Origin: a virus
Direction: 5' to 3' (one strand)
DNA length: 64,000 bases
Virus record (IMG/VR): IMGVR_UViG_3300023094_000009
Coordinates: 1-64,000 of that record
Within the stretch, counting starts at the first letter, position 1. Every line of letters starts with the position of its first letter. Below, piece after piece: positions 1,007 through 64,000 of this stretch. The translations under genes were made by a program, and so were the position numbers. The notes below the pieces were generated by a model. The model did not search any database. It saw only the letters and a list, made by a program, of their open reading frames with translations, and had not been told where the DNA came from.

Positions 1007-1381
1007 GGTTTGGAGGGAAAATTTTCTTTTCAGTTCTTTTTCCGACAAAATTTAAAAACAATGACACAACAAATTCTAAACATTGACCCTAAAATGAGAG
1101 TTGTAATTGATTCGATAGAGGGAGTAATTACACACAGATTTTATAATCAGACTTCATTAAGAGGAGTTATAAAGGTATCTGATGGCGTTATAATATCTCA
1201 AATCCATTTAGGAAAATGATATTCTTTAAATTACTTCTTTTTCCTATATACTTTCTTCTTATGCTACCTGTTGAATATCCTTTGTGGAAAGCTTATAAAG
1301 AAGTTGGTAAATGCAATGACAGCTTAGTTAAATTTATTTGGAATGGGTGTTGATTTATTTTTCAGTTTTTATTCGCCGAAA

Positions 1382-1426
1382 ATAACTTATAATTAACATT
1401 TATATCAATACTTATCACTATCTTTG
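1382..1426 (+). promoter_or_regulatory. promoter: tandem WTAACW box + Bacteroidota -7 element
   Basis: ATAACT(1382)-N5-TTAACA(1393)-N20-TATCTTTG(1419); ATG at 1432. Confidence 0.75.
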
Positions 1427-1431
1427 TGGTC

Positions 1432-1578
1432 ATGAGAGTAGAAGTAGAAAAACTAGAAGACTTGATCCAAAATTGGAGAAACCTTATAGGAGGCTTATCT
1501 AAAGACAATATTCAAGTGCAAGCTGTTGAAGTTTGTATTTCAGATTTAGAAATGATTATAAATATTTTTGGAAAATGA
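1432..1578 (+). CDS. small hypothetical protein, probably leaderless
   Basis: MRVEVEKLEDLIQNWRN...; ATG 5 nt after the -7 element. Confidence 0.6.
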   Translation: MRVEVEKLEDLIQNWRNLIGGLSKDNIQVQAVEVCISDLEMIINIFGK

Positions 1579-1880
1579 AAGTAAGAAAATTAGTATTTGA
1601 AAAAGAGTTTTTAGTTGACAGTCTTGAAGATTTTAAAGGCTTAAAAGATGATGTAAATAAATATACAGACCCATTCTTTAATCTTGTATTTGAAATATAT
1701 CCAAAAGATGAACTAGAGAGGGCTGAAATTATTAGAGCATTGACTGTGTATACTCGCGAAAGGATTATGGAAATCCCAGAATTATTAATAGGTGGTAGTG
1801 AAAAAATAACACTATTAAACCATGCTGAAACAGTTACAGATTGTATGATAACAGGAGTAGGTCGAGTGATAGTTAGATAA
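1533..1880 (+). CDS. hypothetical protein (likely start ATG 1575)
   Basis: ORF track; ATGA overlap with the upstream stop. Confidence 0.6.
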   Translation: MYFRFRNDYKYFWKMKVRKLVFEKEFLVDSLEDFKGLKDDVNKYTDPFFNLVFEIYPKDELERAEIIRALTVYTRERIMEIPELLIGGSEKITLLNHAETVTDCMITGVGRVIVR

Positions 1881-60219: not shown

Positions 60220-60675
60220 GAGAAAAGATTATTCATGCTTGGGGTTCAACAAGAATATCAAATCCAAAAACTTTGCAAAATTGGATTGATCGAGGTTGGT
60301 TTCAAAAACAGCTTGATGAAGGTTATAACTTCTATTCTGGCTGTGGTAGATTTCGTACAGAAGTTTGTTCTTGTAGCAAATGTAGAAAGAATCCTCGTCC
60401 AGATTTAGATGAAATTGTAAATAAAAGAATATGAGCGAAATACTAGATAATGAGGTTTTTAATCTTAAAACAAAAGAAGAGTTTAAAGAATTGGAGAAGA
60501 CAAGGTTTTCCAATAATTTTTCTAAGTCAACTCTAAATTTTATGTATGGTAATTTTAAGGAAGATACTTATTTTTACTTTTACGAGCCAGAAACCTACTA
60601 CATAATTAGTGGTGATAAAGCTGACAAATATGGATTTGAGAAGAGAACTTTTGAAGACTTTAAAAAGAAATATTT

Positions 60676-61404
60676 ATGAACAAGAAGAAAACAACAGAAG
60701 AGTTCATCAAAGATGCTTGTAAAGTACATGGCGACAAATACCTGTATGATAAAGTCATGTACGAAGGTTGGGATAAAAAAGTAACCATAGTGTGTAAGTC
60801 CCATTCAGAATTTGTGCAATCTCCAAATAGCCACCTGAATGGCGGTGGTTGTCCTGTTTGTGCTCAAATATCAAGATCCGAAGCGTATAAAAATACTATT
60901 GGAAGAAAAAAGGATAACTTTACGTATGACTTCACATCAGATACCTCTAAGGTTATACCCCTCACAGAGAAATTTTTTGCTATTGTTGACAATGAAGATT
61001 TTGATAGAGTATCAGAGCACAATTGGCATCTAAGTATTAACTACGCTTCTAATCCCAAATTAGGACTTCTTCATAGATACATACTAAATGTAAATGATCG
61101 TAAAGTCTATGTAGATCACAAGAATCACAATGGTTTTGACAACAGAAAATCAAACTTAAGGCTTTGCAGTCAGAAAGAAAACGCGTCAAATCAGTTAATA
61201 CAGAACAGAGAAAAATCAAGTATCTACAAGGGAGTGACTTGGGATAAAAGTAGGAATAAATGGGCAGGAAGGATAAAACATCATGGAAAAGGAATATTTC
61301 TAGGTCGTTTTTTAAATGAGATAGACGCAGCTTTAGCTTATGATGTGAAAGCTAAAGAGTTGTTTGGTGAATTTGCATGGTTAAATATAAAAGATTCAGA
61401 ATGA
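60676..61404 (+). CDS. HNH-AP2 homing endonuclease with N-terminal Zn-finger repeat
   Basis: VDHKNHNGFDNRKSNLR; SIYKGV.W......W...I......LG.F..E..AA.AYD. Confidence 0.9.
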   Translation: MNKKKTTEEFIKDACKVHGDKYLYDKVMYEGWDKKVTIVCKSHSEFVQSPNSHLNGGGCPVCAQISRSEAYKNTIGRKKDNFTYDFTSDTSKVIPLTEKFFAIVDNEDFDRVSEHNWHLSINYASNPKLGLLHRYILNVNDRKVYVDHKNHNGFDNRKSNLRLCSQKENASNQLIQNREKSSIYKGVTWDKSRNKWAGRIKHHGKGIFLGRFLNEIDAALAYDVKAKELFGEFAWLNIKDSE

Positions 61405-63468
61405 AAGTACCAATATACTTAAAAACATTATTTTCACCCTTCAAGCCCTTAAAGCTCAAATTCTACTTCGGTAAGGTTGCTTTGGGATGTCCTTATTTTC
61501 TACCAAGACGCTTCGTGAAGTCTAAAGACAAACCCGGCTACAAAGTCCCCATTGCCAAGAAAGTAGGGTTTGATTTTGTTAAGCTTGGCTGGAAAACTAA
61601 GTGGAGTGGTAGGGATTATAGGTTCGAATGGTCTCCTAAGTGGTCATTTGTTTTCTTTGGATTTCAGTTTTGTATTTCTTTTATTGCGCCGGAACAGGAT
61701 CACTATTGGGAATGCTGGCTTTATTATGACAATAATACTGACAAAAGTAAATCTAAAAGGGAAAGAATTAAACAATGCAGAGAAGAGCATCCTTGTAGTT
61801 GGACAAGCTATTCAAAAGCTGGAGAGAAAGAAGAAATTGATTATTACGAATTTATCTTAAAGAATAAATATCTAAAATAACAAGTCATTAACATTCCGAA
61901 CAGAATAATACTATTACCTTTACAGAAAAGTTAGAAAGCATGGAACACAAAGTAATGATTCACGGTTCACATCACTACACAATTAAAGTTAAAGGAAATA
62001 AGAAAACCTTATACTTTTCTTGCGAGGATTTTTGGGCAGAGGCGTCACAAGGCAAGAAGATAGCTTCAATAAAGAATACGGGGAATGGTATCAAGATAAA
62101 AAGATTCAATAAATTCTTGGGATATGGTGATGCTCTGGAATTGAACATCCTTCTTACTTGTGAATTAGGAACTAAATTTGAAATACTATGACAATCCAAG
62201 AATTTTGTGAAGAAAAAAGAGGAACTTACGATAAGTTCTACACCATGTATGAAGTGTGCAAGAGTTTAAGTTTTGTAGATTTGAATGTTGACCCCATCCA
62301 AGCTATCAGAGAGGTTTGTAAACTTTTTATGGAGCATCCTTTATATGGAGAAGGTGTTATTGATGTTTCAGTTTCTTATGGCGATCCCTTTGAAGGAGAT
62401 TGCAGGTTGGATGAGGAGTCATTGAATTTCTTTGTTTATGATTTAGAAGAGTTTGTTGATCCTCTTTCTGGCGAAATTGTGAAACCAAGCATGAATAAAC
62501 TGGATGTTAGATTCATCATCAAAAAGTTTGCGGAAGACTCAGAAGAAAATATTTTAGCACAGGAATTAGACAAATGTAGAAGTCTTTCTTACTTTTACAA
62601 TAACTATGTCAAACTTGATGTTCAAGCAGACGTTTCAGATGAAGATATTCAGAATCTAATCAAAAATACACTTAAATTAAGAGGAAGATTATGACTAAAT
62701 TAGAGTTCTACAGGAAAACATATAGAGCCTATTGGTTATCTCAATTTTTACCTTCAAAGTGGTTAAATCCTCACAGAGGATTTTGTCATTTTTGGCGAAG
62801 CAGGAGTATGGGAGAATCTTTTAAAGTGACAGACCTATACTTATTAGCTGTAGCTCATCCTGAATTTTCAAATATGGGGTATTGGTTTGAGCGTGGGAAA
62901 ATAAAACCAAGATTACAAGTTTTAAAAACAGCAATTAAAAATTTAGAAAAATGACAGAAGAAGAAAAATTAAATGAAAGACTAGAATGGTTAGAGGGTAA
63001 CTATGATATGTCTGAAGACGAGAGAAGATCTGTATTACGTGCAATGGTTGAATTTGCTAATTTTCATGTAGGAGAAGCTTTGCAGGAGGCTAGTGAAAAA
63101 GCCACCATGAAACTTGAATATCCTGATGAGGCATATCAGGAGTCAAATGAAACTGGATTGAAGTTTGCCTGTGCTGATGATATTAGTAGAGGAGGAGAGT
63201 ATGGATCTGTAGAAATAGAAGAAGATTCAATTTTAAACGCTTATCCACTATCTAAGATCAAATAATTATGAAAATTAAAGAAACTGAATACTACAACCTC
63301 ATAGAGGGAGAAGACGAAAATGGTGAATGGGCTATCCAGTTGAATAAAGCCAAAAGGGTTTGTCAATTAACATTGGAATCTGATGGTAATGATACTTATG
63401 TGAACCTTGACAAGAAAGAACTTCTCTTAGTTAGAGATTTGATTGATATACAACTTTTAAATATGTAA
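61377..63468 (+). other. block of hypothetical ORFs
   Basis: 61377-61880, 61940-62191, 62188-62694, 62691-62954, 62951-63265, 63268-63468. Confidence 0.7.
61877..61922 (+). promoter_or_regulatory. promoter with tandem box
   Basis: ATAACA(61877)-N5-TTAACA(61888)-N21-TACCTTTA(61915). Confidence 0.7.
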
Positions 63469-63473
63469 TTTTT

Positions 63474-64000
63474 ATGAAAAATTTATTATTAATTTTCTTT
63501 GTTTTCAGTTTGTTTTGCGCGAATTGTCAGCCATATGTTCACACTACGGGATCTGTAACAACATGTTCCGGTTTATTTTATGATAACGGTAACACTGGTA
63601 ATTACCTAAATAACAGTAATGTAACTCAAACCTTTGTGCCACCTTCCTCTTGCTCTGCACTAAGTGTGACGTTTTCAGCATTTAATGTAGAGGCGGGTTA
63701 TGATTTTCTATATGTATATAATGGAAATTCCACAAGTGCTCCTTTGATAGGGACTTATACTGGAACTACCCTCCCTTCAACCATAGTTTCTTCCTCAACT
63801 GATGGTTCTTTAACTTTTAGGTTCACATCAGATAATACCCAACGTAGAGCTGGGTGGGTGGCTTCTTTCTCCTGTATCACAAAACTAACCTTAAATGCAG
63901 GAGTTGATAAAACAGTAAGTTGTCACGGTAATACTACTATGTCAGCAACTGCAACAACTTTAGGTTTCACTGGTTCCACAACTTACCAACAAAATCTAAT
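63474..64000 (+). CDS. signal peptide + CUB-domain protein, 3' partial
   Basis: Hand translation: MKNLLLIFFVFSLFCANCQ...TTCSGLFYDNG...F..FNVEAGYDFLYVYNG...LTFRFTSD.....GWVA; runs off the window. Confidence 0.85.
   Translation, partial: MKNLLLIFFVFSLFCANCQPYVHTTGSVTTCSGLFYDNGNTGNYLNNSNVTQTFVPPSSCSALSVTFSAFNVEAGYDFLYVYNGNSTSAPLIGTYTGTTLPSTIVSSSTDGSLTFRFTSDNTQRRAGWVASFSCITKLTLNAGVDKTVSCHGNTTMSATATTLGFTGSTTYQQNL

Follow-up and report, generated by a model that had tools for sequence, protein, structure and literature searches.

A polar bipartite DNA element at gene borders in the early arm of a crAss-like phage, a candidate signal for gene expression

The first 64 kb of a virus contig of 141,284 bp and 35.6% G+C, recovered from a leaf-litter metagenome, carry a short, polar DNA element which is found in both orientations and mostly between genes. 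This stretch (positions 1 to 64,000 of IMG/VR record IMGVR_UViG_3300023094_000009) is referred to below as the window. The element is about 20-25 bp long and consists of the heptamer TTTCAGT, a T-rich spacer, a G/C block and A(AA). Its invariant word, polar bipartite form, private dialects in related phages, early-arm location and placement at gene borders together argue for a protein-read signal tied to gene units, and since both orientations are used, a plain promoter, ribosome-binding site (RBS) or RNA element fits poorly. The reading tentatively preferred here is that of a polar signal in duplex DNA, read by a phage-specific gene-expression factor, whose most likely effect would be hairpin-independent termination or insulation at cassette borders. 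That a protein recognizes it, and that it acts in transcription, is inferred from sequence patterns.

A strict copy was defined as TTTCAGT followed, after 5-20 nt of which 60% or more are T, by a G/C run of at least 3 nt. The window holds 44 strict copies, 23 on the plus and 21 on the minus strand, compared to 0.57 +/- 0.75 (maximum 3) in 100 order-3 Markov simulations. A first-pass annotation of this DNA had proposed a repeated bipartite word in both orientations, and this was borne out, as was the range that it gave (first copy at 1028, last at 63503-63521). The heptamer alone occurs 71 times in the window vs 23.2 +/- 5.0 times in shuffles, and it is kept strictly, with 46 exact copies against 5 one-mismatch variants. 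Of the 46 early-arm copies, 40 have a spacer that measures 6-9 nt and five have one of 12-17 nt. The G/C block spans 3-9 nt and mostly has G as its last base, and an A lies directly 3' of it in 56 of 72 looser copies. When the copies are aligned, T-rich positions are also found immediately 5' of the heptamer, and the ends of the element form a weak, imperfect inverted repeat of 5-6 bp. Strand-reversed copies are conserved as well as forward ones.

Right halves without the heptamer (T run, G/C block, A run) were found as well, for example at 6771, 13941, 18644, 24258 and 48027. Those at 6771, 13941 and 48027 had been noticed before as core-only copies and are real; more were found at 18644, 24258 and 41576. 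The unusually long spacers described earlier at 20996, 24495 and 61662 are also real (15, 15 and 17 nt), but their interpretation as one added helical turn was not supported. The spacer classes differ by 6-10 nt, therefore not by a clean helical turn, and helical phasing is weak. The copies, in window coordinates, are as follows.

1028-1044 (+), full copy in a gap; spacer 7, core 3; 21 nt past stop 1006, 16 nt ahead of ATG 1061
1360-1378 (+), full copy in a gap, then a host-type promoter box; spacer 7, core 5; -7 box 41 nt downstream
2297-2315 (+), full copy in a gap; spacer 7, core 5
2701-2718 (+), full copy in a gap; 23 nt past stop 2677, 35 nt ahead of ATG 2754; AT palindrome immediately upstream
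6769-6784 (no strand), right half only: T run, palindromic G/C block, A run
7595-7614 (-), full copy in a gap; 4 nt past stop 7590, 15 nt ahead of ATG 7630
9725-9743 (+), full copy in a gap; 5 nt past stop 9719, 27 nt ahead of ATG 9771
10189-10206 (+), full copy in a gap; flanked by a hairpin terminator and a host-type promoter
11902-11920 (+), full copy in open reading frame (ORF) 11485-12069; in frame, with an in-frame ATG 17 nt downstream
12250-12268 (-), full copy in a gap; 1 nt past stop 12248
13938-13953 (no strand), right half only; 10 nt ahead of ATG 13963
14946-14965 (-), full copy in a gap; 1 nt past stop 14944, 12 nt ahead of ATG 14978
15452-15471 (-), full copy in a gap; 4 nt past a stop, 15 nt ahead of ATG 15487
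16750-16768 (-), full copy in a 909-nt non-coding stretch; a perfect 16-nt AT palindrome adjoins the heptamer
16877-16899 (-), weaker copy, spacer 13, core 3; in the non-coding stretch shared with copy 16750
17713-17729 (-), full copy in ORF 17627-17932; codon 29
18420-18440 (+), full copy in a gap; 17 nt ahead of ATG 18458
18640-18655 (+), right half only, in a gap; ahead of ATG 18662
19419-19437 (-), full copy in a gap; 32 nt ahead of ATG 19470, with an AT palindrome in between
19838-19856 (-), full copy across stop 19847; 11 nt ahead of ATG 19868
20342-20365 (-), full copy in a gap; 13 nt ahead of ATG 20379; core is an 8-nt palindrome
20996-21023 (-), long-spacer copy (15 nt) in a gap; 2 nt ahead of ATG 21026
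21455-21473 (-), full copy in a gap
22777-22799 (+), full copy in a gap; 6 nt past stop 22770, 25 nt ahead of ATG 22825
23033-23052 (+), full copy in ORF 22825-23256
23499-23523 (+), full copy in a gap upstream of tRNA-Met; 4 nt past stop 23494
24250-24266 (+), right half only; 5 nt ahead of ATG 24268
24496-24521 (-), long-spacer copy (15 nt) in ORF 24447-24692; codon 17
25795-25815 (-), full copy in ORF 25384-25842; 9 codons ahead of the ORF stop
30852-30874 (-), full copy in ORF 30611-31144
31418-31437 (+), full copy in a gap, downstream of a -7 box; 19 nt ahead of ATG 31457
32193-32211 (-), full copy across stop 32203
35788-35806 (-), full copy in the last 8 codons of ORF 35587-35811
39764-39781 (+), full copy in a gap, flanked by a hairpin terminator and a host-type promoter; -7 box 51 nt downstream
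41559-41582 (+), variant copy with one heptamer mismatch; AT palindrome upstream
42199-42219 (-), full copy in ORF 41595-42476, at a Pfam domain start (PF18909 from residue 203); relative L089 has a degenerate copy at the corresponding place
44905-44925 (-), full copy in ORF 44847-45137; codon 20
45764-45787 (+), copy with spacer 12 in ORF 45613/45670-45837; the L089 ortholog keeps a copy at the corresponding place
48024-48040 (+), right half only, past a DnaB-like gene; the L089 junction has a full copy with a 29-nt spacer
48970-48987 (+), full copy in a gap, then a hairpin terminator; 20 nt past stop 48949; L089 junction without a copy
50064-50085 (-), full copy across stop 50083 (stop within the heptamer); L089 junction also with a reversed copy
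52537-52557 (-), full copy in a gap; 3 nt past stop 52533, 6 nt ahead of ATG 52564
57290-57309 (+), full copy in a gap, then a host-type promoter; 8 nt past stop 57281; -7 box 50 nt downstream
57380-57399 (+), second full copy in the gap of copy 57290, downstream of that gap's promoter; 17 nt ahead of ATG 57417
58119-58137 (+), full copy in a gap; 6 nt past stop 58112, 23 nt ahead of ATG 58161
58751-58768 (+), full copy in a gap; 14 nt past a stop, 32 nt ahead of ATG 58801
59774-59793 (+), full copy in a gap, then a -7 box; 30 nt ahead of ATG 59824
61662-61692 (+), long-spacer copy (17 nt) in ORF 61515-61880; codes for a hydrophobic stretch
62366-62383 (+), full copy in ORF 62188-62694
63503-63521 (+), full copy in the signal-peptide codons of ORF 63474-65072

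Every gene called up to about 73 kb lies on the plus strand. Besides many small ORFs, this early arm has genes for a GroEL-like chaperonin, ribonucleotide reductase, a family A DNA polymerase and a DnaB-like helicase. Between 73 and 136 kb the minus strand carries the genes, those for the terminase and giant virion proteins among them. Over the whole contig, 46 of 57 strict copies fall in the first 70.5 kb, and a tighter pattern gave 19 copies in the early arm vs 2 in the other half, so that the element is not spread genome-wide as had been thought. The late half has 1-3 good copies only; the clear one (134043) is reversed and lies 11 nt upstream of the terminase ATG. Copies inside genes had also been noted, and 13 of the 44 window copies do lie in called ORFs (83% of the sequence is coding). 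This is not the main trait, however, as the other 31 are found in the 17% that is non-coding, a density in gaps about 13-fold that in coding DNA. Among the 72 early-arm gaps of at least 20 nt, 30 (42%) contain a full copy and 12 more a right half. Confinement to the early arm together with the 13-fold gap density ties the element to gene units and argues against genome-wide roles in protection, packaging or uptake.

Within the gaps the two orientations are placed differently. Forward copies start 4-23 nt past a stop codon in 11 cases and often leave 16-35 nt between their end and the next ATG. Reverse copies lie 1-4 nt past the stop or overlap it, and 6-15 nt ahead of the next ATG. If the host needs leaders that are A-rich and unstructured, this asymmetry would follow regardless of the role of the element. 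Copies 2297, 16750, 21455 and 23499 are far from any start codon. The spacing between copies is random (coefficient of variation (CV) 0.91), and their orientation is clustered in blocks (15 runs vs 23.8 expected, permutation p = 0.005). Even spacing and strand alternation were ruled out by the CV and by runs fewer than random. GC skew keeps one sign throughout 9-25 kb at 600-nt resolution and hence does not flip at the copies there.

Two further sequence features accompany the heptamer. About ten copies are directly adjoined, on their heptamer side, by an A/T palindrome of 12-17 nt (GGAAAATTT...AAATTTTCC type), and such palindromes were located at 1012-1027, 2683-2698, 5510-5525, 16772-16787, 19441-19457, 41539-41555 and 42480-42496; they could be operators for a dimeric regulator. 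Inside ORF 52824-53051, two inverted heptamers stand 9 nt apart (52860-52882) without a G/C block, where a 7-bp stem is possible.

Conventional signals were examined at the copies. The RNA fold of 12 copies gave 0 to -4 kcal/mol with z-scores near 0, which excludes a hairpin terminator, in agreement with the first-pass annotation. An intrinsic terminator was ruled out because the copies lack a hairpin; genuine hairpin terminators stand beside some of them, and a scan for hairpin terminators was at chance level. Three forward copies (10189, 39764 and 48970) adjoin such terminators, which suggests that the element is a second, separate 3'-end or boundary signal. Mobile repeats of the miniature inverted-repeat transposable element (MITE) or repetitive extragenic palindromic (REP) type were likewise ruled out, since invariance is limited to 7 nt and the imperfect arms, of 5-6 bp, do not fold. 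The earlier judgement that the element is neither an RBS nor a standard promoter also stands: neither a -7 nor a -10 box is part of it, and of the 31 intergenic copies 14 are directed against the genes. The primary-sigma promoter of Bacteroidota (-33 TTTG and -7 TAnnTTTG, about 19-21 nt apart) was rejected since the element has no -7 box and 21 of 44 copies are reversed. A sigma-70-type promoter (-35 and -10 hexamers with 16-18 nt between them) was rejected since a consensus scan was at chance (78 vs 71 +/- 7).

Bacteroidota-type -7 boxes do occur near the element, separate from the copies, upstream or downstream of them and in variable position and order. They were found in 6 gaps with a forward copy and in 0 gaps with a reverse copy only. 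Copies 1360, 10189, 39764 and 57290 precede host-type promoters; copies 31418 and 57380 lie downstream of -7 boxes and so in 5' untranslated regions (UTRs). What look like the actual host-type promoters form a motif class of their own, with a conserved box containing TTAACAT about 20 nt 5' of the -7 box TAnnTTTG. They are found 10-20 nt upstream of the ATG of many genes in both arms, for example at about 1395, 10230, 39795, 57320 and 61890, and also ahead of late genes 73802, 79939, 125061 and 130916.

The least probable of the explanations considered is that the element is itself an ordinary co-directional promoter for host RNA polymerase, with reverse and intragenic copies being chance or decayed ones. 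Dispersed conserved motifs of phage early regions are usually promoters, and forward copies lie 16-35 nt 5' of start codons, often with A/T-rich, -10-like hexamers after the G/C block. However, the sequence after the block is not conserved in reverse copies, therefore these hexamers belong to the leader and not to the element. Moreover, 21 of 44 copies are reversed and equally well conserved, the separate -7 boxes keep no fixed order relative to the copies, and the sigma-70-type scan was at chance.

An RNA-level role was considered very unlikely. The element would then be part of a leader or trailer, either an unstructured U- or A-rich enhancer of translation in place of a Shine-Dalgarno sequence or a site for an RNA-binding protein or nuclease. 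The genes have no Shine-Dalgarno sequences and possess A/T-rich leaders; reverse copies give an A-rich unstructured stretch directly 5' of the ATG, forward copies are followed by an A/T-rich leader of 16-35 nt, and copies 31418 and 57380 are in 5' UTRs. Yet one exact heptamer is shared by two orientations whose RNAs are unrelated, an invariant 7-mer with a G/C block is more than composition alone can account for, and several copies (2297, 16750, 21455, 23499) are distant from start codons.

Every intragenic copy reads in frame. Codon-preserving shuffles, a check proposed with the original description, gave 2.25 +/- 1.4 intragenic copies vs 12 scored (13 with 63503), an excess of about 5-fold, and the enrichment of intragenic copies is therefore real. 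One site listed as intragenic, 13157, proved to be a one-mismatch variant which lies in a gap by the new gene calls. Many intragenic copies are within the first 10-29 or last 6-14 codons of their ORF, and one is at a domain junction: copy 42199 lies exactly at the start of the Pfam dGTP-diphosphohydrolase domain (PF18909) of a 293-aa ORF. This ORF (41595-42476) is the ortholog of a 184-aa two-domain protein of L089 and has about 110 extra residues between the domains; a paralog with its N-terminal domain, at 67529-68137, also has an in-frame copy of the motif. Two intragenic copies can be compared with L089, of which 45764 is intact in both phages and 42199 is degenerate in L089. The second proposed check, conservation at synonymous sites, concerned one intragenic copy, 45764, and gave no excess: third-codon identity to L089 is 6/8 within the motif and 27/37 outside. 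DNA selection beyond that on the protein is therefore not demonstrated at this copy.

The phage is a member of the phi4:1 / epsilon crAss-like group and infects Bacteroidota, an assignment based on virion-protein matches, -7 boxes, the lack of Shine-Dalgarno sequences and the relatives of a gene resembling cargo of the type IX secretion system (T9SS). Its 2296-aa virion protein is 36% identical to those of Cellulophaga phages phi4:1 and phi17:2 and 34% identical to the 'muzzle protein' of the epsilon crAss-like phage crAssE-Sib, to which it is homologous, so that its virion module is of the crAss-like kind. Many phage genes have the Bacteroidota -7 box TAnnTTTG upstream, and the T9SS-cargo-like gene has relatives in Bacteroidota only; as a pointer to a particular host this gene gave 30-39% matches only, spread over many Bacteroidota families. 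Megablast against phage records gave no match to the phage genome, and the terminase has no relative in IMG/VR.

Relatives were found via DNA polymerase homologs, and L089, L091 and L092 were compared over +/-10 kb. DNA polymerase identity is 81% for L089, 61-62% for L091 and L174, 59% for L092, 51% for L175 and 40% for L001-L003. L089 has a few copies in the same TTTCAGT dialect. In L091, L092, L174 and L003 the T run, G/C block and A run are preceded by CTGTTT 16-19 nt upstream, in both orientations, with 2-6 copies per locus compared to about 0.4-0.9 expected. In the present phage the distance from the corresponding word, CAGTTT, to the block is 11 nt, and a minor class of copies has 16-21 nt. 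In L092 the upstream gene's stop codon falls within the reverse copies, which also abut the following ATG. The element is absent from phi4:1, L175, L001 and L002, and in phi4:1, which is the closest relative in culture, no word is over-represented in a comparable way. Co-evolution with a reader protein would give just this pattern, in which the word shifts and the architecture is kept.

Comparison with L089 also showed that some copies coincide with changes in gene content. The order in the two genomes is a DnaB-like gene, a copy, unrelated genes, the DUF4494 gene, a copy in the present phage only, again unrelated genes, a reverse copy in both, and a 46-aa gene. Three replacement blocks are bounded by copies, and one block specific to the present phage (50243-53958) has no flanking copies. 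At the junction 5' of the dGTP-diphosphohydrolase domain the copy has opposite orientations in the two phages. In L089 the gaps between early ORFs (450-3103) carry another repeat, a foldable palindromic unit which starts at the stop codon (TAACGG...) and occupies gaps where the present phage has the bipartite element.

From this, it might be proposed that the element is a recombination junction, that is, a mini-repeat or a nuclease or recombinase target for the gain, loss and swapping of small early-arm cassettes, which would contribute little or nothing to expression. This is unlikely, although many observations agree with it: the copies lie between small, poorly conserved ORFs of a plastic arm, bound non-homologous replacement blocks, differ in orientation from L089 before the dGTP-diphosphohydrolase domain, and occur in orientation blocks, as from local duplication. 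The in-frame copies at ORF ends and at a domain junction and the weak 5-6 bp inverted repeat at the element ends would fit as well. However, 7 invariant nucleotides in an otherwise degenerate sequence indicate selection for recognition rather than recent copying or gene conversion, and neither target-site duplications nor long terminal repeats were seen. Two orientations would favour inversions, yet the early genes are all on one strand. Moreover, relatives with as little as 40% DNA polymerase identity keep the architecture in another dialect, and block 50243-53958 has no copies at its ends.

A signal shared with the host, such as Chi or an uptake sequence, was rejected because there is no over-representation in the 401 Bacteroidota genomes searched. 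The scan of host genomes that had been suggested gave 0-45 matches per genome in these 401 genomes, the level of the reversed-pattern control, a result which holds only for the genomes searched. The density is 270 per Mb in the phage vs at most about 12 per Mb in these genomes. The first-pass idea of a DNA-level site read by a protein fits this absence, along with the invariant heptamer and the lineage dialects.

Such a site might instead be a landmark of DNA metabolism, such as a programmed nick, a primase or primosome entry site or a topoisomerase site read on the DNA. Independence of gene orientation, the invariant heptamer, the bipartite form with its two spacing classes and the phage-private distribution all agree with this possibility. 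In addition, a BT4734-like primase is found in all five element-bearing relatives and a Prim-Pol type in the element-free L175 and phi4:1, a correlation from a small sample which is confounded by kinship. The explanation was nevertheless judged improbable. Replication, packaging and protection need the whole genome, in contrast to the scarcity of good copies in the late half, and the 13-fold gap preference and tight stop/start placement would be unexpected. Furthermore, the orientation does not show the one or two switches of a fork-related signal, and known phage nick motifs, as in T5, are confined to one strand.

The preferred reading, a signal at cassette borders acting on transcription, would work as follows. 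The reader would be a phage RNA polymerase or a factor acting on polymerase. Its action would be hairpin-independent termination or insulation on the strand with the T-rich version; initiation is less likely. Forward copies would close rightward units, often immediately upstream of a host-type promoter, and reverse copies would halt leftward (antisense) transcription at those borders. Copies would coincide with cassette exchange points between relatives because each unit carries the signal. Two phages provide the context. In P23-45, seven termination sites of the two-barrel virion RNA polymerase have a common 26-nt motif (10.1101/2022.12.01.518664). In phi14:2, which is crAss-like, early transcripts are made by the virion polymerase, and the signal for it was not found (10.1101/2020.03.07.982082). 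A broader and bolder formulation is possible though doubtful: a polar duplex-DNA word with dialects across an uncultivated clade of Bacteroidota phages, read by a dedicated phage protein at gene borders on either strand, would be a hairpin-free terminator or insulator for a crAss-type virion RNA polymerase, or would mark programmed nicks doubling as entry points for transcription or recombination.

Several results weigh against a terminator or insulator. No phage RNA polymerase or sigma factor was found in the 141-kb genome with PF00940 or PF04542, though the PF00940 search gave no match in control genomes either and is thus weak evidence against a T7-like polymerase. The 2296-, 1885- and 1895-aa virion proteins had no match to solved RNA polymerases by sequence or family profile, and, where a crAss-type two-barrel virion polymerase would have a DFDxD-type catalytic motif, the only DxDxD motif found, DYDND in the 1885-aa protein, lacks conservation across its 24 homologs. 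Reverse copies would need a hypothetical leftward transcription of the early arm to act on. Many forward copies are 16-35 nt from the next ATG with no recognisable promoter in between, and full termination would therefore silence the downstream gene. The orientation blocks are not predicted by a termination model, and the roughly 5-fold intragenic excess is not required of a pure boundary signal. As for other DNA-binding candidates, ORF 108164-108607 (-) has weak HU/IHF-like matches (PF00216 E 0.01-0.08, phrog_379 E 6e-4); one of its six homologs has an HU/IHF-like match, and its AlphaFold model was unusable (predicted local distance difference test (pLDDT) score 37).

Known dispersed elements resemble the present one in part. 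T7 RNA polymerase recognizes a class II termination signal made of a conserved 7-mer, ATCTGTT, and a U run. Like this signal and the P23-45 sites, the element combines a short conserved word with a T-rich run, has no hairpin, lies at early-gene ends and is private to phages; moreover, several L092 copies contain ATCTGTT. Its obligatory G/C block and equal use of both orientations have no counterpart there, and in the present phage a T7-like polymerase gene was not found and no polymerase was identified. The REP and bacterial interspersed mosaic elements (BIMEs) of enterobacteria are extragenic repeats, some with IHF sites, bound by proteins that bend DNA or act on its topology. They too are short repeats that directly follow stop codons at many operon junctions and may point either way, but REPs are foldable imperfect palindromes of the host with hundreds of copies, whereas the present element is unfolded and phage-borne. 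Nick-site motifs are known in T5, phiKMV-like and tf-like phages. Like the element, these words are private to phages and have a G/C-rich core, and they are read as DNA, as is supposed for the element; they differ in being few per genome, on one strand and not tied to gene borders.

In T4-type phages, promoter-early stem-loop (PeSL) cassettes consist of a sigma-70 early promoter and a stem-loop and are swapped with small genes (PMC2839356, PMC4122927). Both PeSLs and the present element are dispersed and lineage-specific, lie between small early ORFs in a plastic region of a large phage genome, and include degraded or partial copies. PeSLs mark the ends of insertions, deletions and replacements; copies of the present element bound three replacement blocks against L089 and not a fourth. 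PeSLs are longer and co-oriented with genes, whereas the element is 20-25 bp, points in either direction and lacks promoter hexamers and a stem-loop. Identity with a PeSL cassette was therefore rejected, as the element is not a promoter and stem-loop unit co-oriented with genes. If the copies are exchange points, the PeSL idea of regulatory cassettes driving gene shuffling would extend to a very different phage group in a hairpin-free and orientation-free form. The motif is a concrete, synthesizable 25-mer which may bear on the early transcription of crAss-like and related Bacteroidota phages, and it helps to delimit genes in genomes crowded with ORFs of unknown function.

Other features of the contig were recorded as well. 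The GroEL-like chaperonin is encoded at 3004-4821 (PF00118, E 1e-39), and the 414-aa product of 27008-28252 has a T5orf172 (GIY-YIG-like) domain. TnpB-like genes (OrfB_IS605 / Cas12f-like) were found on the contig (109334-110437, -) and in L089 (16694-17812); they are 34% identical and differ in position, and crAssE-Sib has two too. In the 1885-aa virion protein (82132-87789, -), the penultimate cysteine, C1884, is an invariant column in 24 homologs. A Pistol self-cleaving ribozyme was located at 16497-16560 (+) as a full-length Rfam match (66.6 bits vs a gathering score of 34.5), 6 nt past ORF 16287-16490 and within a nearly ORF-free 1.7-kb stretch (15663-17400).

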